Assembly: GCA_963665295.1 (NCBI GenBank) | Contig: OY762209.1 | Span: forward strand, 4,544,001 to 4,608,000 | Direction: 5' to 3' | From: Syntrophorhabdaceae bacterium | Lineage (GTDB): Bacteria > Desulfobacterota > Syntrophorhabdia > Syntrophorhabdales > Syntrophorhabdaceae | Length of the DNA: 64,000 bases | Shown here: in pieces, positions 12,086 to 64,000 of the stretch | Layout of the letters: the number at the start of each line of letters is the position of its first letter | Numbering within the stretch: the stretch's first letter is position 1 | Made by a program: the position numbers and the translations under genes | Notes under the pieces: generated by a model | Told to the model about the DNA's origin: nothing | Database searches by the model: none | Seen by the model: the letters and a program-made list of their open reading frames with translations, nothing else

Positions 12086-13732
12086 ATGGCGTCTGTAAAG
12101 CTTGGAGACATCTTAATAGAAAAGGGGCTTATCACCCAGAAACAGCTCAATATCGCTCTGATCCAACAGAGGGTGACCGGGGACCTTCTCGGCGATGTCC
12201 TTGTGAAACTCGGGTTCATATCCTCCAAGGAAAGAACCCAGATACTGGCCGAACAGACAGGCATAGAGTTCTACGACCTGGGGCATCGTCTCGTTGCGGA
12301 AGATGCTCTAAAGGCCGTGCCCAAGGCAGTTGCGGAAAAGAACGAATTCATACCCATTGAAGAAGAGAACGGGAGATTGAGCATAGGCATCACCAACCCG
12401 GGAAACATCCTCGCCATAGACACGGTATCCCGGATTACCAAGAACCAGCCGAAAGTCTACCTGGTTGACAGCGACGCGTACAACGAGGCTGCCGACAGGT
12501 CCTATTTCTTTCTCGAAAATCCCGTGCAAAACAGGATCGACAGCGTCATTCGGGAGGCCCAGACCACGGGTACCATCGGGGGCAACAGCGTGGTCTCCCT
12601 GACCGATACCATCCTTATGGATGGAATACGGCGGAACGCCACTGATATCCACATCAACCCCGCTCAGGATGTGGTCCAGATCTTTTTCAGGATAGACGGC
12701 GTCCTCCAGTTTGCCCACTGTCTCCCCAAGGTTGTCCAGACAGGGGTCGTCTCCCGGATAAAGATCATCTCCCAACTTAACATCGCGGAGACAAGATTGC
12801 CCCAGGACGGCGCGTTTACCTACAACTTCCTGAGCAGGGGTTATGATATACGCGTCTCCACAGCGCCCACCATTTACGGTGAAAATGTAGTAATGAGGAT
12901 ACTCACGGGAAGGGCGTCCTTCCTGCGACTCGAGAAACTCGGTTTTGACTCTCAGAACACCGAAAAGGTGAAGGCACTTTTTCAGAAGCCCTTTGGTATC
13001 ATCCTTGTCACCGGCCCCACGGGAAGCGGAAAGACGACAACCCTCTATGCCGCCCTGAGAGAGGTCAATATCCTCGAAAGAAATGTTCTCACCGTAGAGG
13101 ACCCTGTGGAATACAAGTTGAGCTTCGTGAAGCAGACGCAGGTGAACGAGAAGGCCGGATATGATTTTGCCCTGGCGGGAAGGACTTTTATGAGACAGGA
13201 CCCCGACGTGATCCTCCTGGGCGAGATCCGGGACGAAGAGACTGCGAGGCTCGCCGTGAGGGCCTCCGTCACGGGTCACCTTGTCATAAGCACCCTTCAT
13301 ACCAATGATGCGCTCACGGCGGTCCCCCGCCTTGTGGACCTGGGCGTGGACCGGTTCATGCTCTCCGCCTCCCTTCTCGCCATCATTGCCCAGAGGCTCA
13401 TAAGAAAGACGTGCACCTACTGTAAGACGGAATATGATCTCAGCGACAACGAGATTGCAGCGCTCAGGGAGTATGGAATCGAATCAACCAAAGGCTTTAG
13501 GGGGAAGGGCTGTCCGAAGTGTCAAATGACGGGCTATTCAGGGAGGATAGTCATCGGCGAGATACTCACCGTCACCGACGAAATGAGGGAGTTAATCTAT
13601 TCGTCGGCCTCCACCACGGTAATGAAAGAATGCGCTATAAGAGGGGGAATGCGCCAACTGAAGGAAGACGCATTGATCAAAGCTGCCCAGGGAATCACGA
13701 CGGTCGAGGAGGCCATGAGGGTCGCAGGTTGA
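12086..13732 (+). CDS. GspE/PilB-family secretion/pilus assembly ATPase
   Basis: N-terminal KLGDILIEKGLIT (MshEN-like), Walker A GPTGSGKT, EDPVE, RQDPDVILLGEIRD, GHLVISTLH, tetra-Cys motif. Confidence 0.93.
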   Translation: MASVKLGDILIEKGLITQKQLNIALIQQRVTGDLLGDVLVKLGFISSKERTQILAEQTGIEFYDLGHRLVAEDALKAVPKAVAEKNEFIPIEEENGRLSIGITNPGNILAIDTVSRITKNQPKVYLVDSDAYNEAADRSYFFLENPVQNRIDSVIREAQTTGTIGGNSVVSLTDTILMDGIRRNATDIHINPAQDVVQIFFRIDGVLQFAHCLPKVVQTGVVSRIKIISQLNIAETRLPQDGAFTYNFLSRGYDIRVSTAPTIYGENVVMRILTGRASFLRLEKLGFDSQNTEKVKALFQKPFGIILVTGPTGSGKTTTLYAALREVNILERNVLTVEDPVEYKLSFVKQTQVNEKAGYDFALAGRTFMRQDPDVILLGEIRDEETARLAVRASVTGHLVISTLHTNDALTAVPRLVDLGVDRFMLSASLLAIIAQRLIRKTCTYCKTEYDLSDNEIAALREYGIESTKGFRGKGCPKCQMTGYSGRIVIGEILTVTDEMRELIYSSASTTVMKECAIRGGMRQLKEDALIKAAQGITTVEEAMRVAG

Positions 13733-16634: not shown

Positions 16635-18020
16635 TTAGGATGATATGGGGTTTGCATATACCGCAATTCGCCGGGTTGTCTCTCCGGTCGCTTTATACCG
16701 GTCGTCGATCCTGTGACCGATTACCCATATAATATCGTTGCCTGACATGAGCAACGGGATGTGTCTCCTTTCTTCTCTCGGTATCTTGCGGGAGATAAAA
16801 AAATCCTTCAACTTTACCGACGCCCTCATGCCGAGGGGGACGAATCTGTCCCCTTCACGAAAAATCCTCACGCTGAGTGTCCCGATCTTCTCTTCGTCAA
16901 AAAAGGCCGAGTCGGGACCCGGGGCGAGTGCCGGACCATCACACGCGCCCGGCGACGACACTACCTGGAGATTCAGACAAAATTCCTCCAGCCTGTTCGT
17001 TCCCCGGGAAACAGGGAAGGTCTCCAGGGAAGGAGCACGAGGGGATTTCTCCGTGACTGTAAGGATCCCATAGGTTTTCCTGATTCTCAGGCCATGGGGC
17101 AGCGCCGTGGACAAATTCGGCCTCGCCCCTCCTATCACATTGTCGATCTGGCGCATATGCTCCCTGAGCGGAATAAATCCCGGCTCCACGCGGCCGAGGA
17201 TGCCGGCCATCACCCTGAAGCGCGTCTCGTCATCGAGAACCTTCAGTTCTTTGACAGGAAGAGATGCATCACCCCTTTCCCACTTCACGAAAGCGCCCGC
17301 AAAATCCTCCGCTTTGGCATCGAATACCCGGTTTACCGCCGTAAGGTCCTTAAGGAGCAGTAATATCTTCTCCCTGAAGGCGGGGTTCAGCTTCTCCATC
17401 CATGGGGTTATCTGTTTTCTGATAAAATTTCTCTCGTACACTATCTTTTCATTGGACGAGTCATTTACGAAGGGAATGGACTGAATGCGCGCATGTTCCT
17501 CTATGTCGGTTCTCCTGACGCCGAGAAAGGGCCTCACAATGTTATCCCTCTTTACGGGGATTGCCGACAGCCCCCTCATGCCTGTACCCTTCAACATGCG
17601 CAGGATAAAGGTTTCCACCTGGTCATCGAGGATATGGGCAACCCCTATTTTCTGGAAGCCATGGCGGGTTGCGGTCTCCCTGAAAAACCCGTACCTCACA
17701 TCCCTGCCCGCGTGTTGCAAAGATTTACCCGAATCACGGGCCTCTTTTCTCACGTCCACCCTTGCAACATAACAGGGCAAGGCAAAGGTCCGGCCCAGGC
17801 TCCTCACAAACTCCTCGTCTCTCTCGGACTCTTCGCCTCTCAGAAGGTGATTGATATGGGCTATGCCCACGTCGAAGGAAAGCGCGGTCCTGAGATCACA
17901 CAGCACGTGGAGCAGCACCGTTGAGTCTATCCCGCCCGACAGGCCGAGCAGTATCCTCTCGGACGGCTCGATCAGCCTTTCCTGCTCTATGACGTCCCTG
18001 ATCCTGGAAACGAAATTCAT
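16635..18020 (-). CDS. tilS: tRNA(Ile)-lysidine synthetase
   Basis: LSGGIDS PP-loop, HINHLLRG, DQVETF, ERNFIR, C-terminal TilS domain; real start judged to be MNFVSR at 18020. Confidence 0.93.
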   Translation of the reverse strand: MNFVSRIRDVIEQERLIEPSERILLGLSGGIDSTVLLHVLCDLRTALSFDVGIAHINHLLRGEESERDEEFVRSLGRTFALPCYVARVDVRKEARDSGKSLQHAGRDVRYGFFRETATRHGFQKIGVAHILDDQVETFILRMLKGTGMRGLSAIPVKRDNIVRPFLGVRRTDIEEHARIQSIPFVNDSSNEKIVYERNFIRKQITPWMEKLNPAFREKILLLLKDLTAVNRVFDAKAEDFAGAFVKWERGDASLPVKELKVLDDETRFRVMAGILGRVEPGFIPLREHMRQIDNVIGGARPNLSTALPHGLRIRKTYGILTVTEKSPRAPSLETFPVSRGTNRLEEFCLNLQVVSSPGACDGPALAPGPDSAFFDEEKIGTLSVRIFREGDRFVPLGMRASVKLKDFFISRKIPREERRHIPLLMSGNDIIWVIGHRIDDRYKATGETTRRIAVYANPISS

Positions 18021-18093
18021 GGGAAAAACACGAGGCCGGCGGATATGACGGAAGCGGTCTCCATCCGTCCCTACCTTGACCGTAAGGCTTTCA

Positions 18094-18315
18094 TTATGAA
18101 CAGGACGAACAATTCGACGAACCGCAACCGGCGCAGCCAGACCCGGAGCTCGGTCCGGACGATTTTGATTTGTATCCCGTGGAAAACCCGAAGGTGGACA
18201 TCTTTCTTGTGGGCTCCTTATCTCCGCAAGCCGGACACTCCGGCGTATCGTCCCTGAACACGATGAGCTCGAATTCATTCCCACATTTTTCGCATCTATA
18301 CTCATATATGGGCAT
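18094..18315 (-). CDS. FmdB-family zinc-ribbon protein
   Basis: MPIYEYRCEKCG…CPACG and Cys-rich tail. Confidence 0.9.
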   Translation of the reverse strand: MPIYEYRCEKCGNEFELIVFRDDTPECPACGDKEPTRKMSTFGFSTGYKSKSSGPSSGSGCAGCGSSNCSSCS

Positions 18316-51271: not shown

Positions 51272-51928
51272 GTGAGGACAACCTTATTCTTGTCGGATGA
51301 TCACGTTATGGTCAGGGAGGGCCTCCGGTTGTTTCTGGACGGCCAGCCTGGGTTCAACGTCATAGGGCAGGCCTCTGATGGACACGAAACAGTCAGGCAG
51401 GTGCTCAGGCTCAAGCCCGATGTGGTGATTATGGACGTCATGATGCCCGAGCTTAACGGCATCGACGCAACGCGGAAGATTTGCGAGGCAATTCCGTCGG
51501 CAAAGGTGATTATCCTTTCCATGTACGCGAGCAATGAGCACGTTTTTCGCGCCTTCAAGGCGGGGGCGAGCGGGTACGTCCTGAAAGAGATGGCCGGCGA
51601 AGAGCTTGTCCGTGCAATAGAGACGGTTCGCTCGGGAAAACGTTACATTTGTGAAAACATTTCAGGACCCCTCATAGATGACTACATAAAGTACCGGCTG
51701 GCAAACGGAAAACCCGACGATCTCGAACAGTTGAGCGAGAGGGAGCGCGAAGTGCTCCAACTGGTGGCTGAAGGCAATTCGAACAAGCAGATTTCCGGGA
51801 AACTCTCCCTTTCTCCAAGCACGGTGGCAAGCTACCGCTCGCGAATGAAGCAGAAGCTCGGCATAGACGATATATCGGAACTGATCAAATTTGCCATCAG
51901 GCATGGCCTGACATCGGTGAAGGAATAG
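51272..51928 (+). CDS. NarL/LuxR-family response regulator (orphan)
   Basis: DDH…MDVMMP receiver domain and LSEREREVLQL HTH. Confidence 0.93.
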   Translation: MRTTLFLSDDHVMVREGLRLFLDGQPGFNVIGQASDGHETVRQVLRLKPDVVIMDVMMPELNGIDATRKICEAIPSAKVIILSMYASNEHVFRAFKAGASGYVLKEMAGEELVRAIETVRSGKRYICENISGPLIDDYIKYRLANGKPDDLEQLSEREREVLQLVAEGNSNKQISGKLSLSPSTVASYRSRMKQKLGIDDISELIKFAIRHGLTSVKE

Positions 51929-52087: not shown

Positions 52088-53845
52088 TTAGTTGTTTTTG
52101 GTGACCCCGGCGGTCCGACTCGCCCTCACCCTATGCAACTTGCTGTGTTTTCTTCCGTACGCCAGGTAACAGCCCAACCCGATGACGAGCCATACAGAGA
52201 AACCAAGCCACGTAGTTCGTCCCAGTTCCGTCATCAAGTAGAGGCATATTTCCAGACCTGCCAGGGGAATGAGTGAAAGCCTTTTCCTGAAACTGACGTA
52301 CGCCAGAAGTGCCGACACAGCCGCGAACCCTATCACGTGGGGATACCTCCACAGGACAGCCGCTTCACGGGGGCTGAAGATGCAGCAGGCCGAAGCGATG
52401 ACAAGGAGGGCGGGGGTGAAGATATACCGGGAATCGATATAGGGGACCTTGAATTTGCCCCGTGACACACTCTTGTCTTCCTCAAGCACCAGAACGCCTC
52501 CACACACAAGGGCAAAGGCAAACAGCGTCCCTATGCTGCAAAGGTCGGTCACGTCGGCGAGATTCATCAGTTGCGACGGGACGATCACCACCGCGCCGGT
52601 AAAGAGCGTTGAGAACCACGGGGTACCGAACCGCGGGTGAATTGCGTGAAATATGGAGGGGAGCAGGCCGTCCCGCCCCATGGACATCATAACCCTGGAC
52701 TGGCTGATGGCCAGAGCGAGAATGACTGTAGCCATGGTTACCACTGCGCTTGCGGCAACGATCCCCGCGATCATCCGGGCGTTGGCGCCATTCCCTGAGA
52801 AGGCGGCCACCAGAGGGTCGCCCACCCGGAGGTCCTTGTAGTTCACGGCCCCTGTCAGCACAAGGGCGAGAGCAACGTACAGAAAGGTACAGATCAACAG
52901 TGAATAGATGATCCCTCGAGGGAGATCACGCTGGGGGTTTCTGCACTCCTCGGCAGTATTTGATATGGCGTCAAATCCTATATATGCGAAGAAGACCCCG
53001 GAAACCCCTTTCAACACGCCGGGCAACCCATTAGGCGCGAAGGGGCTCCAGTTTTCCTGGCGCACGTAAAACGCACCCGCAATAATGACCAGGAGAACTG
53101 TCGCCGTCTTTATGGTGACCAGGCCATTGGTGATGCGCTTTGATTCCCGTATGCCCGTGTAGCTGACCGCAGTGAGGAGGACGACTACACAGAGCGCGGG
53201 AAGGTCGAGGATGGGCCGGATTCCGAAGACAAGGGGTGCCTCGTTCCATGCATGGTATCCGCTCAGGGCGAAGGACATCCCCGGAATCCGGCCGATAGTC
53301 TCCAAGGTGTGACCCTGGCTGAGAAGCTCTCCTATCTTTTGGACGCCTTTCGATGCCGAAAAATAGTCCATGCTCAGGAACCGGGGAAATTCAATGCCGT
53401 AACCCGAGATGAGGCTCGTAAAATAGTCGCTCCATGAAATGGAAACGGCGCTTGCCGCCACGGTATACTCCATAATAAGGTCCCAGCCGATCACCCACGC
53501 GATCACCTCTCCGAAGGCGGCGTAGGAATAGGTGTAGGCTGAACCCGCAATAGGTATGCGTGAAGCGAAGTCCGCGTAGCAAAGGGCGGAACAACCGCAC
53601 GCCAGGCCCATAAAAATACAGAGAAATACAACTGCGGGTCCTCCCCAGTATGCGGCGTTGCCGATAGTGGAAAAGATCCCCGCCCCCACGATTACGGCAA
53701 TGCCGAAGGCCACAAGGTCGGTCAAACCCAGCTCCCGGCGAAGCCCGTCCGCGTCGGATGAACTTCCGCCCGCATGGCAGTCCGCCCTTCCATCGGTAAG
53801 GATCATGGAGAGGTCTTTCTTGCGGAGCAGATCACGGAATTTCAT
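52088..53845 (-). CDS. APC-family amino acid permease (cationic amino acid transporter type)
   Basis: GAGIF, GSAYTY, FFAYIGFD, AEEC.NPQRDLP; RBS aggagg. Confidence 0.93.
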   Translation of the reverse strand: MKFRDLLRKKDLSMILTDGRADCHAGGSSSDADGLRRELGLTDLVAFGIAVIVGAGIFSTIGNAAYWGGPAVVFLCIFMGLACGCSALCYADFASRIPIAGSAYTYSYAAFGEVIAWVIGWDLIMEYTVAASAVSISWSDYFTSLISGYGIEFPRFLSMDYFSASKGVQKIGELLSQGHTLETIGRIPGMSFALSGYHAWNEAPLVFGIRPILDLPALCVVVLLTAVSYTGIRESKRITNGLVTIKTATVLLVIIAGAFYVRQENWSPFAPNGLPGVLKGVSGVFFAYIGFDAISNTAEECRNPQRDLPRGIIYSLLICTFLYVALALVLTGAVNYKDLRVGDPLVAAFSGNGANARMIAGIVAASAVVTMATVILALAISQSRVMMSMGRDGLLPSIFHAIHPRFGTPWFSTLFTGAVVIVPSQLMNLADVTDLCSIGTLFAFALVCGGVLVLEEDKSVSRGKFKVPYIDSRYIFTPALLVIASACCIFSPREAAVLWRYPHVIGFAAVSALLAYVSFRKRLSLIPLAGLEICLYLMTELGRTTWLGFSVWLVIGLGCYLAYGRKHSKLHRVRASRTAGVTKNN

Positions 53846-54168
53846 GGGTTACCTCCTGATGGCGTTTCCTGTAATTCACCGTTCTTACCTCACATAAGCG
53901 GTATGGAAGGTGACTAATAACTAAACCCGGAACGCGGCAATAGTTATGCAGCAAATGTTTGATACTGTGTGCCGAATTAGTTTGCATTCTTTGCATCGGG
54001 TCTCGACCCGGTCGTGTAGCCGCGTCGGCAACCTTGTGATAAAATGCCGCACAAATACGCAAATCAGGGCGGCAGACATGGCACGCCTGTTGGTATACCC
54101 TGTTATCGAGCGACGTTGTCCGGGCCTGGGCGACAAAGAACAGATCAGAATAGATCCCGGAGATGAAC

Positions 54169-54400
54169 ATGGAATGGACTGAAATGGCGACGACCTACCG
54201 GCTTTGCGACGTATTCGTCGACGAGGATTACAGAGGGCGGGACCCGGGCAAAAGACTGGTCGGATTTATTGTCGAGGCCCCCGGGTTAAAGGGATTGTGA
54301 GGAGTTCTCTCAACCGAGGATGCCCACGGGTTGTACGAGAGACACGGGTTCGCCGGGAACTCCGGGAAGGTCATGCTCAAGCCCCACGGGCGGCAACCAT
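54169..54400 (+). pseudogene. GNAT acetyltransferase pseudogene (internal deletion plus in-frame stop)
   Basis: MEWTEM|ATTYRLCDVFVDEDYRGRDPGKRLV…LKGL*GVLSTEDAHGLYERHGF; TGA at 54298-54300; 3' end approximate. Confidence 0.75.
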
Positions 54401-54452
54401 TAAGAATGGGTCCTTCAGAAACAGCAGCGAAGGAGTTGATCTCCCTGTGCCC

Positions 54453-56132
54453 TCAATTCACGTCAGGAATGGAGAGTACCCTTTCGAACCTTGCAGCCAC
54501 GGACTCCTTGTGGGTAATGCAGATGATCGTCTGTTTCTCAAAAATCCTGAACAGGTCGTCGAGGATCTCTTCTTCTACGGCCCCATCCAGGCCCGACGTA
54601 AATTCATCCAACACGAGTACGTGGGGGTCCCTGATAAGGGCGCGGGCAAGGGCGATCCGTTGCTTCTGTCCGCCCGAAAGATTGAATCCCTTCTCCGCGA
54701 AAACGGTTTCGTATTGCTCCGGAAGGCTTTCGATCACGTCGGCGATCCGAACCAGGGCCGCGACCTCCTTGATCCGTTCAAGGGGAACGCCATACCAGCC
54801 CATGGCGATATTTTCCCGGAACGTCTCCCTGAAGAGGTGGGTCTCCTGTCTCACGTAGGCGAAGAAAGTCAAATAAAAAGGCAGGGGATAGGACTCGACG
54901 TCCTTTCCACCGAAAAGAATCTCTCCCGTTTCCGGCTTGAGGAATCTGGTAATCAACTGGGCCAGTGTGCTTTTCCCCGAGCCGCTCGGTCCGACAACTG
55001 CGATCTTTTCACCCGGTTGGATATGAAGATTGACGTTGGTAAGCACGGCCTTGCCGTGGGGATAGGCAAAGGAGACATTACGGAATTCAATATCCGTCCT
55101 TTCCGGCACGCCTTCCAGCGTGAAATCGGCCCGCACCCGTTCTTCGGGAAAATCCATGATCTCCTTCATGCGCTGCAGGGCGGGCAATGCTTGCGCCGAG
55201 TTGATCACTCCCTGGAAAACAAAAAATATCTGGGTGGCAAGTCTGAAGAAAATCACGAAGTACGCCACGAGCATGCCCACGGTAATGTCAGTGCTGCCGC
55301 GACAAATAAGGTATCCCCCCAAAATGAACGGTATGAGCCGAACCGTGACACCCAGGAAATCAAGCCCCGCCGAAGACCAGTCGGACAGAATACGGGTAAT
55401 TATGCTGTGGTCCGCATAACTCTTCGAATCCCTGAAGAACCGGCGTCCGGCCCGTTCCTGCTGCTGGTAAAACCGGATTTCCCTGATTCCGGTCAACATG
55501 TCGAGAAGCGTTTCATTTTGTGCGGCGAGCTTTTCTTTCGAAAGCCTGAAGCTGGTGGCTATAGGTTTGTAAGTCTTCCATGCATATATTTGCAGAAAAG
55601 GGAGCGTGACGAGGAAAGCGAGGCCAAGACGCCAGTTCCAGACAATCAGTCCGGTCACCAGGATCAGGGAAAAGACACAGAAAGCGAGAGACCGCAGCAC
55701 CGTTTGCTGGAAGAAACTGCTGATGAAGTCCAGGTCACTGCTCACCCGGGTCAAAATATCTCCCGAGGGATACTTCGAAAAAAAATCGATCCGCTTCCGC
55801 ATGATGCCGTCCACGAGTGTTTGTCGGAATTGCAGAAACATCCTCTCCGACGCACGTACGGCGAAATTCGAATGGACCGACCAGAATATGAAGGCCACGA
55901 CGTTGGTCAGAAGCAGCAAGGCACTATAGACAAGAAGAAGGTTTGTATCCCTTTCCGGCAGTGCGACGTCGATGATATCTTTAATGATAAAGGGTCCTGC
56001 AAGGGAACCGAAGGTTGAGATGAGGATGAAGAGAGAGGCTGCGGCGAGGTACTTACGCTCCGGCCCGATAGCCGGCCCGAGAAGTTCCCACAAAAGCCCG
56101 AGGACTGATGCTATCTTCTTTTTCTTAACCAA
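54453..56132 (-). CDS. ABC exporter, fused permease + ATPase (MsbA-like)
   Basis: TM domain, GPSGSGKS, LSGGQKQR, LVLDE, ITH; TTG start at 56132 assumed because the longer ORF runs into the IS end. Confidence 0.92.
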   Translation of the reverse strand: MVKKKKIASVLGLLWELLGPAIGPERKYLAAASLFILISTFGSLAGPFIIKDIIDVALPERDTNLLLVYSALLLLTNVVAFIFWSVHSNFAVRASERMFLQFRQTLVDGIMRKRIDFFSKYPSGDILTRVSSDLDFISSFFQQTVLRSLAFCVFSLILVTGLIVWNWRLGLAFLVTLPFLQIYAWKTYKPIATSFRLSKEKLAAQNETLLDMLTGIREIRFYQQQERAGRRFFRDSKSYADHSIITRILSDWSSAGLDFLGVTVRLIPFILGGYLICRGSTDITVGMLVAYFVIFFRLATQIFFVFQGVINSAQALPALQRMKEIMDFPEERVRADFTLEGVPERTDIEFRNVSFAYPHGKAVLTNVNLHIQPGEKIAVVGPSGSGKSTLAQLITRFLKPETGEILFGGKDVESYPLPFYLTFFAYVRQETHLFRETFRENIAMGWYGVPLERIKEVAALVRIADVIESLPEQYETVFAEKGFNLSGGQKQRIALARALIRDPHVLVLDEFTSGLDGAVEEEILDDLFRIFEKQTIICITHKESVAARFERVLSIPDVN

Positions 56133-56301
56133 GGAAGCACCTTTTTCGATTCCCCTTCTCCCATCATGTGACCCTTTGCTAAAGGCTATCACAGGGAGTC
56201 CGGGATACACAAGCGGCATGAGGATTGCCGGGAATTCGAGACTATTATACTTGACATACCCAAACAAATGTTCTATGCTTCTATAAGAAAGGAGATAGAA
56301 C

Positions 56302-57255
56302 ATGAGCCAATCAATAATATCCGCTGCCTACTTCCACAATGAAGATGCCGCTTACGAGTTCGTTGAATCAAGGGTATGGCCCGATGGCCCTGTGTGCCCT
56401 CATTGCGGCGAGCGCGAGCGCATTAGCAAGATGCAGGGCAAGAGCACAAGGATAGGCACTTATAAGTGCTATGCTTGTCGTAATCCTTTCACCGTTAAGA
56501 TCGGGACTATTTTCGAGGGCAGCCATGTTCCTCTGCGCCTATGGCTTCAAGCAATCTATCTAATGTGTGCTTCAAAGAAAGGCATAAGCGCCAACCAGCT
56601 TCACCGGACCTTGGGCGTCACTCTGAAAACTGCGTGGTTTATGGCTCATCGTATTCGTTTGGCAATGGCTCAACCCTCCAAAGAGCCATTCGGGGGGATC
56701 GTTGAAATGGATGAAACATACGTCGGCGGCAAGCTGAAACTTGGTTCTATGGCTGTCAAGCCGGGGGAACGACCTAAAGACAGGCTTTCTCCGGTAGCCA
56801 ACAAGGCTCCTGTGGTATCTCTTGTCCAGCGTAACGGATCGGTCCGGTCTTATCATGTTACCAAGATTACTGCATATAATCTCAGGCCGATAGTCGATGA
56901 GGTTGTAGCGAAGGACGCGCACCTTATGACCGACACTTCAACCATACTCAAAAGCGCCGGGGCGGGCCGTAAACTATCCCAAGTGAACCACGAGCGGGAA
57001 GAGTATGTAAGATACGAGGACGGCGAGTGTATCACCACCAACACGGTTGAAGGCTATTTCAGTATCTTGAAGAGGGGCATTAACGGCGTCTATCATCATT
57101 GCAGTAAACATCATCTTCATAGATACCTTGCGGAGTTTGATTTCAGGTATAATAATAGGGTAGCCAAGGGCGTGAACGATACAGAGCGAGCAGAGAATGC
57201 CCTTAAAGGCATTGTAGGTAAAAGGCTCACCTACAAGAGGCCTGTTAAAGGATAA
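56302..57255 (+). CDS. IS1595-family (ISXO2-like) transposase
   Basis: CPHC…CYAC zinc ribbon, VEMDETYVGG, LMTD, VNH, TNTVEGYFSILKRG, YLAEFDFRYN. Confidence 0.96.
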   Translation: MSQSIISAAYFHNEDAAYEFVESRVWPDGPVCPHCGERERISKMQGKSTRIGTYKCYACRNPFTVKIGTIFEGSHVPLRLWLQAIYLMCASKKGISANQLHRTLGVTLKTAWFMAHRIRLAMAQPSKEPFGGIVEMDETYVGGKLKLGSMAVKPGERPKDRLSPVANKAPVVSLVQRNGSVRSYHVTKITAYNLRPIVDEVVAKDAHLMTDTSTILKSAGAGRKLSQVNHEREEYVRYEDGECITTNTVEGYFSILKRGINGVYHHCSKHHLHRYLAEFDFRYNNRVAKGVNDTERAENALKGIVGKRLTYKRPVKG

Positions 57256-57263
57256 GGAGGACT

Positions 57264-57428
57264 ATGAGGAAAGACGACAAAGGGAACATAAAAAACCACC
57301 ACGATCTGGACGACGAAGAGGAGTCTATAAGATTCGTCGAAAAGGCTAAAGAGACGCAGGCAGAAGGCGCCGATGAACTATTCATGGGGGCCTGTGATTT
57401 AATATTGTCTAAGAAGGCTAAGGACTAG
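57264..57428 (+). CDS. Small IS1595 passenger protein (54 aa)
   Basis: RBS taaggagg right after the transposase; MRKDDKG…EESIRFVEKAKE…ELF; below the ORF-track cutoff. Confidence 0.6.
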   Translation: MRKDDKGNIKNHHDLDDEEESIRFVEKAKETQAEGADELFMGACDLILSKKAKD

Positions 57429-58279
57429 TCTCGTCTTGGTTCTCGCAGTTTTTTGCTAAGGCGCTCTATAAATTTCACTGTGCCGTCTAATATATCTTTC
57501 GCTTCAGTTTCATTATATACAATCCTTGAGTGAGACACATTGTTTCTGTATGCATCCTTGAAATGATCGAACTGGGCCGCTGCGTCCGATACAAAAGTTA
57601 CTTTAGCGGACCACTCTTTGTAGGCCCTATTGCTCATTTGTTTGCGCTTTGGGGCGTCTTTCAGGTAATCTATCGCGTGTTTTATTTTAGAAATTAGTTT
57701 GCCTTGCTCCGCATATTCTATTCCTTTGTATACTTTTGTGATGTTTAGGTGTCTCGCAAAGACCCTTAGGCCGATCTCCACCGCTCTCATTGCGTGGAAC
57801 ACAGAGGCGGTATATTCCCCAAAGACGAAGCATTTGCCGGAATGGTTTAATTCGCTAGAGGCCCCGGGGAACCTTTCTTTTAGTGAGCCGACCACGCCCC
57901 AACTATAGTATTTAGAACGTTCCTGGGGGACATGAAAGAATAAATACCCCCCTATGGCGGAATAAACTACACGTTCCAACATCATGAGTTCGTTCCAAGT
58001 TTTAGGCATGTTCACGGCTAAATATGCCAGCAGATCGGATGCCACTTTGGCGCCTAGGTCGTCACAACATTTAGTCAGGTTCGTTATAAAAAGACGCACA
58101 AATTCTATGTTTTCTTTATCATCTAATGGATGATCCCCAAATGCTTCCAAAACTGCCATCCTAGCCTTAACTTCACCAAACAGTTGGCCAATCTCTATGT
58201 ATTCTTTTGCCGATACTTTAAGCATATCCAATATGCTCCACAGTTTATATGGATTTTCTACCCAAGGTAATAGTTTCAT
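57425..58279 (-). CDS. IS passenger, putative HEPN-domain protein
   Basis: HAMRAVEIGLR helix and C-terminal YRNNVSHS (R-X4-H); RBS aaggagg. Confidence 0.65.
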   Translation of the reverse strand: MKLLPWVENPYKLWSILDMLKVSAKEYIEIGQLFGEVKARMAVLEAFGDHPLDDKENIEFVRLFITNLTKCCDDLGAKVASDLLAYLAVNMPKTWNELMMLERVVYSAIGGYLFFHVPQERSKYYSWGVVGSLKERFPGASSELNHSGKCFVFGEYTASVFHAMRAVEIGLRVFARHLNITKVYKGIEYAEQGKLISKIKHAIDYLKDAPKRKQMSNRAYKEWSAKVTFVSDAAAQFDHFKDAYRNNVSHSRIVYNETEAKDILDGTVKFIERLSKKLREPRRD

Positions 58280-58368
58280 CCTACACCCCTCCTTAAAAAC
58301 CGTCAATATATTGGTTGTATTTTTCCTCCGTAATGGTACAATCGGCTAAAACTTGCGGAGGCTTACCC

Positions 58369-58599
58369 ATGGAAGAGAACATCTATTCTGGAATTACAGA
58401 GGTCATGCAAATAACGCCCGATGACGTGATAAGATGCGCCACCTGTAATTATTTGCCCAACGATTATGCCGACACAATCAATCACTATCTTTCCAACCAC
58501 GGATATAAACTGCTTCACATTGGATCACACTCGTCTTACGATGGCACTCATTATATCAGTGACATCTTTGCTCTGCTCGGCAAGGGGCCTGTTGGGTAG
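58369..58599 (+). CDS. IS passenger, small C2H2-like zinc-finger protein
   Basis: RBS ggagg; CATC-x12-H-x4-H. Confidence 0.55.
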   Translation: MEENIYSGITEVMQITPDDVIRCATCNYLPNDYADTINHYLSNHGYKLLHIGSHSSYDGTHYISDIFALLGKGPVG

Positions 58600-58752
58600 G
58601 GGCATTAGACCCGGAAAACGTTCAAAAAGCAGGTTAATCATTTCTTGGCACTTCTCCTGAAAGTCGGGTTCATCGTCGCTGTGATTTTTTATGTAAAACA
58701 GGGCGTCGATAGCCTGTTTGGGATGTGCCCAATTAGTCATTGTCATTTTCAT
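58525..58752 (-). CDS. IS passenger, small hypothetical protein
   Basis: 75-aa ORF MKMTMTNWAHPK… with a G-rich RBS, just inside the IRR; overlaps the zinc-finger ORF convergently. Confidence 0.45.
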   Translation of the reverse strand: MKMTMTNWAHPKQAIDALFYIKNHSDDEPDFQEKCQEMINLLFERFPGLMPLPNRPLAEQSKDVTDIMSAIVRRV

Positions 58753-58908
58753 TCTATGCCCCCTTATATAGTTCTCCACCGAATAGTAGAACAAGTGTTC
58801 TACTTTGTCAAGTGGGTACGTGAAAGATAATAGTCTCGGGAATTCTCTTGACTCCCTGATAAAAACCTTGTAGAGAGTAGTCAGTAATTCCCCACAGGAG
58901 GTGACGAG

Positions 58909-59889
58909 GTGATAATACTCACTCCAGAGGAAGTGAGAAACAGGTTTGGACGTTTCTTTTACGAAGGGGTAATCACCCTCGTCGATCCCACAAACAACAA
59001 GATCGAAATCGTGGAAACCTTCGGGTTTTTTCCGGGCAGCGGCGAATGGACTGCAATCAACCGATGCAGGGCCGGAGGTATTGTCGAGTATTGCGAGCTT
59101 TACGGCAAGACCACAGTTCTGAGGGCGCGGATCGGGGAGTCCGAAGTGCGGTTCGGGCCGGTTGATCAGGAACAGGGTGGACAAGGCCTGGAAGGCGCTC
59201 TGATAGAAGGCGACACGGTCAGGACGAAGTGGGCGGGGATTGCCGGCGCAGGTCTCAGCGTAGCAGCATCCCTCGCTCAAGCGCCCGGCGTGATATCGGC
59301 GTGTTACCCCACGGAGGAGGATTTGCAGGCCGGGGGACGACACACCAACAGGGTGGAAATAATCACCCCGAGATACGAAAAGATCACCATCGGCATTGAC
59401 GACACCGACGATCCCGAGGGAGGAGCGACATGGTCTCTGGCGTTGAACGCCAGGCATGAAGCCGCCGGACTGGAAGGGGTTGAGCCACTTTTTCTCAGGC
59501 TCGCTCAACTCTATCCCAAGAGCCCTTACAAGACAACCAACTGCACGTCCACCATCATGACGTTTGCGGTGAAACCCGGGATAGAGGATGCGCTCATAAA
59601 GACCGTTGCCGACATCGTCAGATCTCAAACACGGTCAGAGGACACGGGACTCGCGGTCCTCCGGGGCATAGGCGTTCCGGAAAGCCTCTTGGCCTTTGGC
59701 CGTGAAACGAAAAAACGGATGGTCTCTCTGGAAGAGACGGCCATCTTTGAAACCTGGGACAACCTGCGGATAATTGAGATTGGAAAAGGAACAAGGGGCC
59801 GCATCGGGGCTCTCGCGGCTTTGGGGTTGTCCGAGCGGAAAGATGCCGCAATGCTTTATAGTGAGCCCGCATCGCACCTTGTCAGATGA
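58909..59889 (+). CDS. mmp11: Methanogenesis marker protein 11-like (TiaS-related GIDDTD domain)
   Basis: GIAGAG, IGIDDTDDPEGGATW, QLYP…KTTNCTST, GRIGALAA; RBS GGAGGTGA; family call from recalled motifs. Confidence 0.82.
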   Translation: MIILTPEEVRNRFGRFFYEGVITLVDPTNNKIEIVETFGFFPGSGEWTAINRCRAGGIVEYCELYGKTTVLRARIGESEVRFGPVDQEQGGQGLEGALIEGDTVRTKWAGIAGAGLSVAASLAQAPGVISACYPTEEDLQAGGRHTNRVEIITPRYEKITIGIDDTDDPEGGATWSLALNARHEAAGLEGVEPLFLRLAQLYPKSPYKTTNCTSTIMTFAVKPGIEDALIKTVADIVRSQTRSEDTGLAVLRGIGVPESLLAFGRETKKRMVSLEETAIFETWDNLRIIEIGKGTRGRIGALAALGLSERKDAAMLYSEPASHLVR

Positions 59890-59902
59890 TAGCGAGACGA
59901 GC

Positions 59903-60730
59903 ATGATCATAGAGACCATCATGGACAGGGCCCGGACCACCAGGGCAAGGATTGCGGTGGGGGCGGCGTCGGGCCACGAGGAAAAGGTTGTGGAAAGCGC
60001 GGCGAAGGCTGTCGCGCTGGGTTGTGCGGAGGTTGTGATAGTGAGCTCCCGGCCCCTGGATACCCGCTTTGAAAATATCGTGGGCAACGAACCGGAGCAC
60101 AAGCTGATCGAACTCCTCAAGGCAGGAAAGGTGAGCGGGGTCGTGAGGGGCACCCTCGACATAAACCCCATCCTCTCGGCCCTCAGGGAACAATTCGGCG
60201 TCAGGAAGATCTTGAGGCTTGCCCTCCTCAAAACCCCCTCGGGGAACCCGTTCTTCTTCGCCCCGGCCGGTATAGACGACGGCTGGACCGTAAGGGAAAA
60301 GGTCAGGTTCGGTGAGTACGGGGCCGAACTGATAAGAAGGTTGGGCTTCCGTGAAGATATCGGCGTACTCGGCGGAGGCAGATCGGATGACCGCGGACGA
60401 TCCAGAATAACGGACAAGAGCATAGAAGATGCGGAAAAAGTGACGGAAGCATTGAAGAGGAAAGGATACCGGGCCGAATGCCGTTATATACTGATCGAGG
60501 AGGCAGTGAAAAACAACAACTTCATAATCGCTCCGGACGGCATCTCGGGAAACCTCATCTATCGATCCTTATGTCTCGTAGGGGGCGGCAGTGGAATGGG
60601 CGGACCTGTCATAGGGACTGATTTCGTCTATGTCGATACCTCAAGGGCAAGCAGCAGATACGAAAACGCCATATGCCTCGCCTCCGCCCTCGCAAGTTTT
60701 CTACCCCGGCCCCGGAAAGGTGTGCGCTGA
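59903..60730 (+). CDS. mtxX: Methanogenesis marker protein 4 / MtxX-like (phosphate acyltransferase fold)
   Basis: VRGTL, FFFAPAGIDDG, VLGGGR.DD.GR, ILIEEA, IIAPDGISGNLIYRSL, VDTSR; family call from recalled motifs. Confidence 0.85.
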   Translation: MIIETIMDRARTTRARIAVGAASGHEEKVVESAAKAVALGCAEVVIVSSRPLDTRFENIVGNEPEHKLIELLKAGKVSGVVRGTLDINPILSALREQFGVRKILRLALLKTPSGNPFFFAPAGIDDGWTVREKVRFGEYGAELIRRLGFREDIGVLGGGRSDDRGRSRITDKSIEDAEKVTEALKRKGYRAECRYILIEEAVKNNNFIIAPDGISGNLIYRSLCLVGGGSGMGGPVIGTDFVYVDTSRASSRYENAICLASALASFLPRPRKGVR

Positions 60731-60762
60731 TCAGAATACCCGGACAACCGACAACTGTTTTG

Positions 60763-62486
60763 CCCTGATCCACCGCCAAAAATAATTGAAAACCTCGTTG
60801 GCGCTGAATAATCAGCATGATAGAATAAAGGTAGCCAACCAAATCTATCACCAACGAGGTGAATCAATTATGCCACAAGGTCTCCTCGCTTACAAGTATG
60901 AAGAAGACAGAAAGGGTTCGGCCATGACCGCCCTCGCCGGACTCCCCCTCTACCTGGATCTGGCCTTTACCCTTGGCCTACCTGAGAGCATCGGGCATCA
61001 TTTGTCCCTTCGACCGCATCAGGGGTGGACTGACTCCCGGATGATCATGTCTCTTATGCTGCTTGCTCTCGCAGGCGGGGAATGTGTCGACGACCTTAAA
61101 GTGCTGGAAGCCGATAAAGGGTTTTGCCGACTCCTTGAGCGCATGGAACCGACGCTCTCTTTGCGTTTTCGGAGAGAGAAGACGCGCGTTGTTCCCTCTC
61201 CCTCATCCGTATTCCGCTATCTCGCCGCTTTCCACGATACCTCGCTCCTTGACGGCTTTACGCGCATCAACCGCGATCTCGCTGCGTCCTTCCAACGGAG
61301 AAGATCCTCATCTGTTGCGACACTCGACATGGATGCCACCCTCGTGGAGACCGCAAAAAAGAATGCCTTCTTCTCATATGAGGGGTATAAGGCCTACCAG
61401 CCTCTTCAGGTATTCTGGGCGGAACAGGAACTCCTTGTCCATACCGAGTTTCGAAACGGCAATACTCCCGCCAACCATGACCTTCTCAGGGTTTTTAAGG
61501 AAACCCTCGACGGCCTGCCTCAAGGAGTAAAGAAGGTCCGCCTCCGCTCCGACGGTGCGGGCTATGTCCATGATCTTCTCGCATACTGCGACAAAGGAGC
61601 GCATCCGCGATTCGGAAGGGTAGAGTTCGCGATCAGTTGTCCCGTTACCGAGGCGTTCAAGCGCGAGGTCTCTCTTGTACCCGATGAGGAATGGAAGAAT
61701 CTTGACAGTCGCCGCCAGTGGGCGACGGTGGTGTTCGTGCCCAATGCCCTCGCCCATTCAAAAAAGGGACAAACCTACCGCTACTTCGTCATTCGCGAGC
61801 CGCTTCGTCAACCTGTGCTGCCCGGTATGGATCTTCCCTTTGCGACCCTCGATCACAAGGGCGTGCAGTACAAGCTCCGGGGGCTCGTCTCGAACATGGA
61901 GTGGGCAGGGGAGAGACTCATTACCTTCTCCTATGAACGTTGCGGTAAGAGCGAGGAGGCCCACGCCGTCCTAAAAGAGGACCTCGCAGGCGGAAAGCTC
62001 CCGTCGGGGAACTTCGGAGAGAATGCGGCATGGTGGTGGATCATGGTCCTTGCTTTCAATCTTCATGCAGCCATGAAACAACTCGCCCTCGGAGGCTCCT
62101 GGGTGCAAAAGCGGATAAAAGCAATCCGCTTCGGTCTTATCAACCTGCCCGGCCGGATCGTCGACCATGCCCGGCAACTGGTGATCAGGATTGCAAGGTA
62201 CCATCCCTCCTTCGCTCTTCTTGCGGAAGCACGGCAGAAAATCATGAGACTGGCTCTGTCGGGATAGCATGCGTGGGAAAACCCTGAGATGAAGGAGAAG
62301 CATAAGGCGCATTGCAAAAGGAGAGGTGCGCGCCAAAATACCCTTAGGAGGAACATAAACGGTGTCTCCTTAAACGAACGGCAGCGGACGAACCTTTTTT
62401 GATGCCCAAAAAAGGGTGAGTTGATCAAAATTCTGATTCAGGGATCATAAAGCGGGGGATAGGGAAGAGTAGGCGGTGGATTTGGG
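60763..62486 (+). mobile_element. IS1380-family insertion sequence, complete
   Basis: IRL CCCTGATCCACCGCC vs reverse complement of IRR CCCAAATCCACCGCC (13/15); 5-bp direct repeat TTTTG at 60758-60762 and 62487-62491. Confidence 0.92.
60870..62267 (+). CDS. IS1380-family transposase
   Basis: TALAGLP, TLDMDATL, YQPL, EFRNGN, RSDGAGY, RCGKSEEAHAVLK, FGENAAWW. Confidence 0.93.
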   Translation: MPQGLLAYKYEEDRKGSAMTALAGLPLYLDLAFTLGLPESIGHHLSLRPHQGWTDSRMIMSLMLLALAGGECVDDLKVLEADKGFCRLLERMEPTLSLRFRREKTRVVPSPSSVFRYLAAFHDTSLLDGFTRINRDLAASFQRRRSSSVATLDMDATLVETAKKNAFFSYEGYKAYQPLQVFWAEQELLVHTEFRNGNTPANHDLLRVFKETLDGLPQGVKKVRLRSDGAGYVHDLLAYCDKGAHPRFGRVEFAISCPVTEAFKREVSLVPDEEWKNLDSRRQWATVVFVPNALAHSKKGQTYRYFVIREPLRQPVLPGMDLPFATLDHKGVQYKLRGLVSNMEWAGERLITFSYERCGKSEEAHAVLKEDLAGGKLPSGNFGENAAWWWIMVLAFNLHAAMKQLALGGSWVQKRIKAIRFGLINLPGRIVDHARQLVIRIARYHPSFALLAEARQKIMRLALSG

Positions 62487-62500
62487 TTTTGCGGTAACCC

Positions 62501-62529
62501 TTTCAATGGGGCTTTTGATATGATAAAAT
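62501..62529 (+). promoter_or_regulatory. Sigma70 promoter (extended -10) of the fluoride riboswitch transcript
   Basis: TTTCAA, 17 bp, TAAAAT with TG at the extended position. Confidence 0.6.
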
Positions 62530-62536
62530 GCTTCAC

Positions 62537-62589
62537 AAGGTGATGGAGTTCACCTTCCAACCGCCTCTTCGGGGCTGATGACTCCTACC
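62537..62589 (+). promoter_or_regulatory. Fluoride (crcB) riboswitch
   Basis: AAGGTGATGGAGTTCACCTT…AACCGCC…GGCTGATGACTCCTAC; P1 GGTGA/TCACC, pseudoknot GGAGT/ACTCC. Confidence 0.93.
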
Positions 62590-62647
62590 ATTCATGCGCA
62601 GCCGTTTTCGGCAAGAAATATCTGCCGGGGCTGCTGAGGAGGAGCAC

Positions 62648-64000
62648 ATGGCCGACACCGCAGAGAATCATTCCTCCGACATGACTCTTGAGTCCTGCCG
62701 CGACCTGCTCGGCAAGGTTGAGGACGCCTGTCGTAAATTCGATATCATTTCTTTAAGAAGATCGATCGAGGTCTCACGCGGCCTTCTCACGGAACGGCCT
62801 GTGATTGACGTCGCCGTTCTGGGGCAGTTCAAGGCAGGCAAAAGCTCGTTCCTGAACAGTATCATAGGTAGACCCGTTCTTCCGGTAGGCGTCATACCGG
62901 TCACCACTGTCATTACCCGCCTTCAGTACGGGGACAAGGAACGAGCGGTAGTCACGACCTTCGACGGCAGCCGGTGGGAAACCGGTATCGAAGGACTCGA
63001 GGAGTTCATATCCGAGGCAAGAAATCCCGCGAATGAAAAGAACGTGGAGGCGGTGGATATAGACCTCCCGTCCCTTAGACCCTATGTGGGCCTAAGGGTT
63101 GTTGACACGCCCGGCCTCGGCAGCGCCTTCACCTACAACACCGAGACCTCCCGCGAATGGCTGCCCCGGGTAGGCACCGCCATCGTCGCAATAAGCGCAG
63201 ACAGACCTCTGGCGGAAAGCGACATCGATCTTATCAGGAATCTGATGGGACACACACCGAAGGTTGTCCTCCTTCTCACCAAAGCCGACCTGCTCTCCGA
63301 AGGGGAGCGGAAAGAGGTAATGCAGTTTTTCAAGACTACCTTGAAGAGAGTGCTTGGTCTGGAGTTACCCATGTTCATGTATTCGACGACCCGCGAAACG
63401 GACGCCTTCAAAAGGAAGATCGATCACGTACTGCTCGGCCTGTCACGTCACCGGGACCTGGAGTTTCAGAACATTCTCGAATACAAGGTGGGAGCCCTCG
63501 CAAAGGGCTGCGCCGGTTACCTGGAAATAGCGCTCAGGACCGCCACGGAAGCCAACGTGGACAGGCGGAACCTCAGAGAGCTAATTATTAACGAGAAGGT
63601 CGAATATGAGGCCATAGAGCCCGAACTCTCCCTTATGGCAAGAGAAAACATGCTTCAGACAAGAACAATTATCGCCGCCCGGCTGGAAATGATAAGATCC
63701 GGTTTCACGACGCGCCTGGTGCAAAGGCTCACCGGGGCGCTTCCTTCCTGGAAGGGAAACCTCTGGCAACTCACCCGCACGTATGAAGAGTGGCTTGAGC
63801 AGAATCTGGTGCGGGAGGTCGAGGCCATATCGGAAGAAGAGCACATCCATTTTTTTGGAACCCTAAAGAAAACCCGGGAAAGTATCTCCAGAAGCTTGGA
63901 GTTATTCAGACATTATCTCAACTCAAATATAACGAAGGTCCTTGGGGTGACCCTCGAAAAGACCGACTGGAAGATGGAGGTGACCGAACCGTCTCACGCC
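62648..64000 (+). CDS. Bacterial dynamin-like GTPase (runs off the window end)
   Basis: RBS gaggagg; own translation gives VAVLGQFKAGKSSFLNS (G1), PVTT (G2), VDTPG (G3), LTKAD (G4); absent from the ORF track because it has no stop in the window. Confidence 0.92.
   Translation, partial: MADTAENHSSDMTLESCRDLLGKVEDACRKFDIISLRRSIEVSRGLLTERPVIDVAVLGQFKAGKSSFLNSIIGRPVLPVGVIPVTTVITRLQYGDKERAVVTTFDGSRWETGIEGLEEFISEARNPANEKNVEAVDIDLPSLRPYVGLRVVDTPGLGSAFTYNTETSREWLPRVGTAIVAISADRPLAESDIDLIRNLMGHTPKVVLLLTKADLLSEGERKEVMQFFKTTLKRVLGLELPMFMYSTTRETDAFKRKIDHVLLGLSRHRDLEFQNILEYKVGALAKGCAGYLEIALRTATEANVDRRNLRELIINEKVEYEAIEPELSLMARENMLQTRTIIAARLEMIRSGFTTRLVQRLTGALPSWKGNLWQLTRTYEEWLEQNLVREVEAISEEEHIHFFGTLKKTRESISRSLELFRHYLNSNITKVLGVTLEKTDWKMEVTEPSHA

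Follow-up and report, generated by a model that had tools for sequence, protein, structure and literature searches.

Among the relatives of the proteins considered here is MtxX of M. thermautotrophicus (MTH_231), whose crystal structure (9nzy) shows a dimeric protein in which a conserved and mostly basic cleft occupies the position of the Pta active site, and the 2026 paper that reports it calls the function of the protein unresolved (PMC12978539). The synteny given in the accessible part of that paper places uppS, mmp2, mmp12 or mtxAH beside mtxX, with no Mmp11-like partner for Methanocellales, and that part makes no mention of bacteria with mtxX (PMC12978539). For Mmp4/MtxX and for Mmp11 (TIGR03280; m17/DUF1743), an archaea-to-bacteria transfer of both families is noted in one sentence of the supplementary text of Adam et al. 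2022; as far as the available portion of that source goes, the bacteria are not specified, and neither a two-gene operon nor a link to transporters is mentioned. The bare fact of transfer is already known. In this study we analyzed a pair of genes of these types, an Mmp11-like open reading frame (ORF A) followed by an Mmp4/MtxX gene (ORF B), in the chromosome of a Syntrophorhabdaceae bacterium (GCA_963665295.1, contig OY762209.1). The window, that is, the whole stretch of 64,000 nucleotides that was analyzed, corresponds to bases 4,544,001-4,608,000 of a genome that is closed in one contig of 5,508,164 bp and is 98% complete.

The initial annotation of this window, made from the sequence alone, had described two intact co-oriented ORFs 13 bp apart amid bacterial-type genes and had named them Mmp11 and Mmp4. 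The coordinates, the translations and the domains of the flanking genes agree with that description, all the motifs it quoted are present in the two translations, and a spacer of 13 nt separates the TGA of ORF A from the ATG of ORF B (Table 1). The naming held for one gene only: ORF B passes the curated model of its family, TIGR03270, whereas ORF A lies below the cut-off of TIGR03280 and belongs to a separate paralogue.

Against TIGR03270, whose curated cut-off is 190, ORF B scores 210.2 bits (211.3 bits when the whole genome was scanned), and it contains the motifs APAGIDDG, GGGRSDDRGR, APDGISGNL and VDTSR. A profile of 65 ORF B homologues retrieved the solved MtxX chain 9nzy_A with an E-value of 9.2e-55, followed by Ptb and Pta chains; in the alignment of the family with 9nzy the elements GGR..D.GR, PDGI.GNL and VDTSR match, and all 30 columns invariant among the 65 homologues are kept in the window protein. 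With Pta and Ptb it has the fold and the PD..GN and SR motifs in common: in the alignment PDGISGNL falls on PD..GN, and TSR on the Ser-Arg of these enzymes, which is catalytic in Pta. The resemblance to these enzymes ends at the level of their own models, which give only 16.5 bits (TIGR02706, cut-off 410.5) and 17.1 bits (NF004472, cut-off 399), while Pfam PTA_PTB is barely passed at 25.5 bits (cut-off 24), over residues 44-93 of the long reading only. The pairing of ORF B with an ATP-using enzyme is reminiscent of Ack-Pta, but this partner is not of the acetate-kinase type. These scores and motifs identify ORF B as a true Mmp4/MtxX, which differs from the described MtxX in being bacterial, in lying downstream of an Mmp11-like gene and in the tie of its bacterial form to an ATP-binding cassette (ABC) exporter.

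ORF A consists of an N-terminal domain (residues 1-155) of no known family and a kinase-like domain of the TiaS type, TCKD (residues 156-318), with the motifs TIGIDDTDDPEGGATW and KTTNC; it scores 40.4 bits against Pfam TiaS_TCKD (cut-off 27). The match to TIGR03280, the model of methanogenesis marker protein 11, spans model positions 2-289 of 292 and thus the whole architecture of N-domain plus TCKD-like domain, at 206.1 bits against a curated cut-off of 255.8. ORF A and Mmp11 share this architecture and the motifs GIDDTD, KTTNC and GRIGALAA. In score they are apart: the canonical Mmp11 proteins of the tree outgroup (Methanobrevibacter, Geoglobus, Methermicoccaceae and others) reach 305-412 bits, whereas every tested member of the ingroup, whether bacterial, Methanocella or Methanomicrobiales-type, lies at 175-224 bits, below the cut-off. 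A long, fully supported branch parts the two groups in our trees, and in Methanomicrobiales-type contigs the gene directly downstream of the Mmp11-like gene is itself a canonical Mmp11 (328 bits in L044). We therefore assign ORF A, on scores and branching, to a sister paralogue of Mmp11, here termed Mmp11-like, and not to canonical Mmp11; its homologues carry the label 'imperfect marker 11', or that of TiaS, in several sources.

AlphaFold2 models ORF A with confidence, at a predicted local distance difference test score (pLDDT) of 92.8. The segment 156-318 of this model fits the kinase domain of TiaS, the tRNA(Ile2) agmatidine synthetase (3amt, 3u02), with Z 21.2 and a root-mean-square deviation of 1.9 over 154 residues of 3amt_A (Foldseek E 3e-8). 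In the profile alignment the GIDDTD of ORF A falls on the GIDDTD of TiaS, and its nearly invariant T174 on TiaS Thr18, presumably the autophosphorylated residue; all 22 columns invariant among 83 ORF A homologues are kept in the window protein. The kinase-domain fold, the DDTD motif and the Thr position are thus common to both. The rest of the two proteins differs: ORF A gives 41.7 bits against the whole-protein TiaS model NF040849 (cut-off 600) and 17.9 bits against FLD (cut-off 21), measures 326 aa against 417-420 aa in the TiaS chains and is hence about 100 residues shorter, lacks the tRNA-holding parts and carries the extra 155-residue N-domain. Folded alone, this N-domain is predicted with a pLDDT of 90.3; no Foldseek match to it was obtained at E <= 0.001, and the best VIA-align hit (Z 7.1 over 50 residues) covers a common beta-beta-alpha-beta-beta arrangement, with no clear solved relative. 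The predicted complex of ORF A with ORF B scored 0.00, which we count neither way.

The distribution of homologues points to archaea. Our search recovered 122 proteins for ORF A, the best 120 of which were listed, and 735 for ORF B, again with the best 120 retained. Among the matches listed, those of ORF A are bacterial at 60-68% identity, followed by Methanocella at 50-57% and the Methanomicrobiales type at 41-48%; among the best 120 of 735, ORF B has bacterial matches at 63-69%, Methanocella at 52-56%, and Methanoperedens, Methanosarcinaceae and others at 48% or less. The named bacterial sources of the closest ORF A homologues are Syntrophus sp., Syntrophaceae bacterium and Syntrophorhabdaceae bacterium. 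Of 96 genomes of the order, 4 have an ORF A homologue, namely that of the window and 3 of the 20 that belong to another genus, and 5 have an ORF B homologue, the fifth being a fragment at a contig end; no ORF A homologue was found in the 3 further genomes of the genus that the window comes from, nor in 400 other sampled genomes of the phylum (E <= 1e-15). The single-protein scan of genome contigs returned only two loci and ESM Atlas only archaeal TiaS-like clusters; the plasmid collection gave nothing but a distant match, limited to the TCKD, on one small plasmid. Defence-system models matched neither ORF A nor ORF B.

In the quick trees (115 rows for ORF A, being P0001-P0118 less 3 shorter than 290 aa; 86 rows for ORF B, being all hits to P0160, then every second one plus the named ones, with one fragment dropped), the window proteins and all rows with bacterial names form a single clade next to the Methanocella rows. 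Careful trees were then computed on chosen subsets of 43 and 38 rows, respectively, with support expressed as bootstrap/SH-aLRT (Shimodaira-Hasegawa-like approximate likelihood ratio test). For ORF A, rooted on canonical Mmp11, the bacterial clade (100/100) and Methanocella (96/90) are joined at 100/99, with the Methanomicrobiales type next (94/82). For ORF B, from which the long-branch Mmp4 row P0146, basal to the bacterial clade in the quick tree, was omitted, the bacteria (99 SH-aLRT at a bootstrap of 100) and Methanocella (99/97) are joined at 87/61. Since archaeal groups enclose the bacterial clade in both trees, the direction is from archaea to bacteria, in agreement with the transfer proposed by the initial annotation; the Methanomassiliicoccales-type likeness that it saw in ORF A gave way, in identities and trees alike, to Methanocella as the nearest archaeal relatives. 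Because the bacterial clade is the sister of the sampled Methanocella rows and does not lie within them, the donor may have been a stem or unsampled relative of Methanocella.

The timing of the event can be read from composition and divergence. The G+C content at third codon positions (GC3) is 0.636 for ORF A and 0.685 for ORF B, against a host background of 0.663 +/- 0.041 (n=31 window genes), and the bacterial copies are 60-69% identical to one another; these values indicate that the transfer is old and common to a bacterial clade, and not a recent acquisition by this strain.

Gene order in archaea shows that the association is older than its presence in bacteria. We compared 80 metagenome contigs with ORF A homologues, among which L021-L029 (50-55% identity) are of the Methanocella type. 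In these, Mmp4 is the next gene after the ORF A homologue at all 6 informative loci, at a spacing of about 10-12 nt in five contigs and about 145 nt in L021; the remaining 3 of the 9 contigs stop within 271 nt. The surrounding genes, which encode PKD/VWA surface proteins, a Na/Ca exchanger, NAD synthase and EamA, are unrelated, and the pair is therefore a self-contained operon. The initial annotation had drawn attention to the keeping of exactly these two genes together; the bacterium did not join them, as they already form an operon of the same order and similar spacing in the Methanocella-type contigs, and entry as a unit follows from this. An archaeal origin with joint transfer of both genes is, in our judgment, highly probable.

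A different arrangement surrounds the Mmp11-like gene in the Methanomicrobiales-type contigs, where Mmp4 was found in 0 of 70. There a conserved operon (L031-L099, e.g. L044:7031-14368) runs in the order Ftr, Mmp11-like, canonical Mmp11, variant radical SAM, thiamine pyrophosphate (TPP) enzyme, AksA-like and HacA-like. Counted over 69 contigs under 49.5% identity (a threshold that misplaced L030, whose neighbours are of the Methanomicrobiales type), Ftr lies upstream of the Mmp11-like gene in 45 of 49 informative loci, the Mmp11-like and canonical Mmp11 genes stand in tandem in 58 of 60, and the variant radical SAM, a relative of the MSMEG_0568 and LipS2 families, is present in 46 of 49. The TPP enzyme (IOR alpha-like), the AksA-like homocitrate/isopropylmalate synthase and the HacA-like dehydratase each occur in 36 of 38 loci, and HdrB and HdrC are often encoded farther upstream. 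The genes of this operon are candidates for those late steps in the synthesis of coenzyme B that are still unassigned.

In bacteria, the two genes are adjacent in the window, in L009, L010 and L020, in L012 of genome G028 and in L006 of genome G015, and they have acquired neighbours of their own. An orthologue of the ABC exporter of the window stands next to the ORF A homologue in 7 bacterial loci (at 54-70% identity beside the homologues of L009, L010 with two copies, L011, L013, L020 and G015), in none of 79 archaeal loci, and its nearest named homologues are all bacterial. When co-occurrence was scored for 14 first-look candidates per genome, the ABC orthologue (E <= 1e-120) was present in exactly the same 4 of the 96 genomes of the order as ORF A, a count that rests on 3 related genomes of one genus. 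Orthologues of the amino-acid permease (53-75% identity) and of the LuxR-type response regulator (50-59%) lie near the pair in L020, L013 and L012. A HisKA_3 kinase accompanies the regulator near bacterial pairs and was not found near the pair in the window. In G015 and G028, a major facilitator superfamily (MFS) carrier of the aromatic-acid/H+ symporter family comes directly after Mmp4. The pair has thus become linked in bacteria to a bacterial ABC exporter and often to a permease, an MFS organic-acid carrier and a two-component regulator.

These associations, together with the domains of the two proteins, suggest with moderate probability that the pair acts in one small-molecule pathway. The TiaS-type kinase domain of ORF A would activate the oxygen of a small acidic metabolite with ATP, in the simplest case converting a carboxylate to an acyl phosphate; ORF B would then hand the acyl group to an acceptor, for instance the amino group of an amino acid or a thiol; and the neighbouring transporters would bring in an organic acid and an amino acid as substrates and let the product out. 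The idea of phosphoryl activation plus acyl transfer, first put forward in the initial annotation, is plausible, and this specific chemistry, acyl phosphate followed by acyl transfer, is offered as a tentative and rather doubtful proposal. Whatever is made, the reaction would be independent of methyl-coenzyme M reductase, because the host is without McrA and ComA. An unlikely, more detailed version is that the pair forms an ATP-dependent acid-amino acid ligase system, which in methanogens would serve a late coenzyme B step (joining 7-mercaptoheptanoate to threonine, or a phosphorylation) and in syntrophs would make an N-acyl amino acid type of compound from an imported acid and amino acid, exported by the ABC protein and possibly acting as a metabolite or signal for the methanogenic partner. 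The Mmp11-like paralogue within the Ftr...AksA-like/HacA-like operon of the Methanomicrobiales type points this way in archaea, and the BcaP-like permease, the aromatic-acid/H+ symporter-family MFS carrier and the ABC exporter do so in bacteria.

Taken as a whole, and with the mechanism read as a proposal, the account that we favour with some confidence is that an ancestor of a small group of syntrophs took up the two genes together, in a single event, from a relative of Methanocellales. Several observations weigh against it. Two bacterial loci, L011 (in G028, which holds a full pair elsewhere) and L013 (in G026), carry the ORF A homologue without an adjacent Mmp4, and in G026 the two genes lie about 23 kb apart on the same contig. 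The node that unites bacterial and Methanocella Mmp4 has only moderate support, and the Mmp4 proteins of Methanomicrobiales were not among the best 120 of 735 hits usable for that tree. Most group labels are our own reading, as most tree rows are unnamed metagenome proteins and source names are attached to only 3 of the 13 'bacterial' and 6 of the 13 'Methanocella' ORF A rows. The genomes that support the ABC co-occurrence are not independent. To our knowledge, acyl transfer to an amine is known for no member of the fold of ORF B. Finally, the native promoter of ORF A may have been displaced by the insertion sequence (IS) that lies about 63 nt upstream, and the outward promoter-like site in the end of this element is a consensus match only (Table 1).

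Concerning function, the pair could also be an energy-conserving module that runs in reverse in the manner of Pta and acetate kinase, with ORF B forming an acyl phosphate from phosphate and an activated acyl compound, and ORF A using it to produce ATP. Syntrophs rely on unusual substrate-level phosphorylation, and the Pta-type fold and motifs beside a kinase-type domain would suit such a role. We regard this as improbable, given that it leaves the exporter, the permease and the regulator beside the pair without explanation, that the paralogue operon of the Methanomicrobiales type looks biosynthetic rather than catabolic, and that the TiaS kinase domain is a consumer of ATP. It is very unlikely that ORF A modifies nucleic acid as TiaS does, with ORF B unrelated to that task: the close match of its modelled C-terminal half to the TiaS kinase domain would allow this, whereas the absence of the tRNA-holding parts, the presence of TilS for the corresponding tRNA job (window 16635-18305), the retention of the ORF A-ORF B pairing in two domains of life and the transporter neighbours all argue otherwise.

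The positions of the pair, its neighbours and the mobile elements on either side of it are collected in Table 1.

Table 1. Features at and around the gene pair, in window positions.
Feature	Position	Strand	Details
LuxR/NarL-type response regulator	51272..51928	+	Pfam Response_reg + GerE
APC-family amino-acid permease	52088..53845	-	Pfam AA_permease_2 + AA_permease_C; closest NCBIfam model NF053761 (BcaP) 465 bits, cut-off 690 not reached
ABC half-transporter exporter	54453..56192	-	559-579 aa, start uncertain; Pfam ABC_membrane + ABC_tran
Left 8-bp target-site duplication	56230..56237		GGGAATTC, read directly
IS1595-type element	56238..58837		2.6 kb, inserted between ABC gene and ORF A
IS1595-type transposase	56302-57255	+	NF033547 194.6 bits, cut-off 75
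Passenger ORF in IS1595-type element	57425-58306	-	293 aa; no Pfam/NCBIfam/PADLOC family
Passenger ORF in IS1595-type element	58315-58599	+	94 aa; no Pfam/NCBIfam/PADLOC family
Sigma-70-like promoter match in right IS1595-type end, facing ORF A	58805..58834	+	TTGTCA-18-AATAGT, 9/12; consensus match only
Right 8-bp target-site duplication	58838..58845		GGGAATTC, read directly
ORF A, Mmp11-like	58909..59889	+	GTG start, 326 aa, AGGAGG 7 nt upstream
ORF B, Mmp4/MtxX, phosphate acyltransferase fold	59903..60730	+	ATG start, 275 aa
Left 5-bp target-site duplication	60758..60762		TTTTG, read directly
IS1380-family element	60763..62486		1724 bp, downstream of ORF B
IS1380 transposase	60786-62267	+	NF033539 214.1 bits, cut-off 180
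Right 5-bp target-site duplication	62487..62491		TTTTG, read directly

The IS1595-type element has its family transposase, terminal inverted repeats (GAGACTATTAT.../...ATAATAGTCTC) and a target duplication of 8 bp, the length usual for IS1595; it is present as a single copy in the genome, with a GC content of 43-50% (43-45% in the passenger ORFs) against a host mean of 54%. Defence-system models matched none of its passenger ORFs and gave only generic ATPase matches for the ABC gene beside it. The IS1380 element likewise combines its family transposase with a short target duplication and inverted repeats of 15 nt (CCCTGATCCACCGCC / GGCGGTGGATTTGGG), 13 of 15 positions of which match. Six related ends are present elsewhere in the genome, as is a second copy (G000:C1:1351090-1354086) that is 100% identical but interrupted: about 1.27 kb of DNA has been inserted into it, so that one insertion sits inside another. 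A composite transposon carrying the pair was considered and ruled out, because the IS families differ and each element has its own duplication. The target-site duplications reported earlier for both elements are real. Each element is a simple insertion that came later, into an ABC-pair locus already in place and conserved in other bacteria, and neither of them delivered the pair. With the IS1595-type element removed, ORF A adjoins the divergent ABC gene as in L009, where the spacer is 167 nt; an 'empty site' was not found in the three other genomes of the genus, in which the flanking genes are not syntenic.

For the same reasons, it is highly improbable that the pair was recently captured by IS elements from a methanogen partner as the cargo of a composite transposon, even though it lies between two transposase genes and syntrophs live in contact with methanogens: besides the mismatch of the two elements, the proteins are only 50-57% identical to Methanocella against 60-69% to other bacterial copies, their composition is host-like, and the spacing between the ABC gene and ORF A without the IS is close to that of L009. 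Nor is it other than extremely unlikely that the two genes are ordinary, vertically inherited bacterial enzymes of the TiaS-like and Pta/Ptb kinds. Pfam does return TiaS_TCKD and PTA_PTB, and several sources annotate the homologues as TiaS or phosphotransacetylase, yet the whole-protein models of both enzymes are missed by hundreds of bits, ORF A is about 100 residues short of TiaS with no FLD above cut-off, the family is restricted to 4-5 of 96 genomes of the order with none in 400 others of the phylum, and the bacterial clade is nested among archaeal rows. The initial annotation had named ordinary best hits of this kind, or a pair widespread among bacteria, as findings that would speak against a transfer; scores, counts and trees contradict both, and the pair is rare among related bacteria. 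An old transfer of the pair from an archaeon remains the reading that these data favour.

The integrity of the locus was examined by aligning contigs of four public runs to window positions 54000-63500. In two runs from two studies (X1 and X2), single contigs of 51,235 bp and 34,574 bp span positions 54000-60876 with 0 differences, reaching from the ABC gene, across the IS1595-type element and the two ORFs, to the inside of IS1380. Contig depth (23.2 in X1, 7.3 in X2) is similar to the depth of the right flank (26.2 and 9.2, respectively), and the contigs end only within IS1380, where depth is doubled, as expected of a repeat; X1 or X2 is possibly the source of the assembly, which limits the independence of these bridging contigs. 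On either side the genes are bacterial, with the ABC exporter and the IS1595-family transposase on the left and the IS1380-family transposase and a dynamin-like GTPase on the right. Across the window we find TilS, FtsH, elongation factor P, methionyl-tRNA synthetase, the delta' subunit of DNA polymerase III and PutA, as well as type II/IV secretion ATPases and the beta-oxidation enzymes thiolase, enoyl-CoA hydratase and 3-hydroxyacyl-CoA dehydrogenase. Owing to the closed contig, the bridging contigs at flank depth and the intact target duplications, the gene pair is confirmed as a genuine part of the bacterial chromosome and not an artefact. The chance that the segment is an assembly chimera or contamination from a co-cultured methanogen, as the archaeal type of the genes and the IS elements at both sides, typical places of misjoins, might suggest, is close to negligible in view of the closed 5.5-Mb contig, the bridging contigs of two studies, the matching target duplications at both elements, the host-like GC3 and the recurrence of the ABC-pair arrangement in other bacterial genomes and contigs.

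The genome-wide check for mcr, coenzyme M and mmp genes, which the initial annotation had called for, returned no McrA or ComA in the host genome. For Mmp2 there was nothing above cut-off in that genome, only generic sub-threshold matches of the kind seen in all 14 control genomes, and tblastn (E <= 1e-5) detected in it no canonical Mmp11, no variant radical SAM and no Ftr; no radical SAM gene is present at the locus. The host, at 98% completeness, hence does not carry the gene set of methanogens or methanotrophs (McrA, ComA and further marker proteins).

Some further observations were made in passing. An additional DDE_Tnp_1 transposase gene lies at the start of the window (174-1868, + strand), the region being rich in IS elements, and the dynamin-like GTPase gene (62594-64000, + strand) begins 103 nt past the IS1380 target duplication and continues beyond the window end. 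Elsewhere in the genome, a stand-alone protein of 242 aa (L002:1243-1971, - strand, equal to G000:C1 ~5417-6145) has a weak TiaS-kinase-like N-terminus, scoring 41.6 bits with TIGR03280 and a sub-cut-off 19.6 bits with Pfam TCKD, and is encoded between a hybrid histidine kinase and a metallophosphoesterase. In L013 of G026, the ORF A homologue is followed by a gene (10727-12232, + strand) for a fusion of an RsbW-like anti-sigma kinase (HATPase_c_2) with a GNAT acetyltransferase, and not by Mmp4; a second GNAT gene and an MFS carrier are located near this fusion.

With respect to earlier work, our literature search for the marker families together with Syntrophus, Syntrophaceae or Smithella gave nothing beyond Adam et al. 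2022. In the coenzyme B papers that the search returned, neither TiaS nor DUF1743 occurs, and the accessible passages name neither Mmp11 nor Mmp4. The string 'Mmp11' in PMC12584684 refers to locus tags and not to the marker protein. Four points appear to be new: the placing of ORF A in a separate paralogue, a source operon of the Methanocellales type, the module of transporters in bacteria, and the way in which all this contrasts with the Aks/radical-SAM operon found in Methanomicrobiales.

Few 'methanogenesis markers' still lack a function, and Mmp4/MtxX and the Mmp11 family belong to these last ones. Both genes are intact, with every family-invariant residue, in a bacterial lineage that has neither methyl-coenzyme M reductase nor coenzyme M synthesis, and their retention in such a host implies that the reaction is portable and independent of the reductase itself. 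The 'Mmp11' hits in Methanocellales, Methanomicrobiales and bacteria represent a distinct paralogue, which matters for the use of this family as a methanogen marker in metagenomes. The bacterial neighbours, together with the archaeal ones (2-oxoacid elongation genes and radical SAM), narrow the candidate substrates and make the function testable. Both enzymes would thus work outside methane metabolism in a syntroph, where they are open to study.

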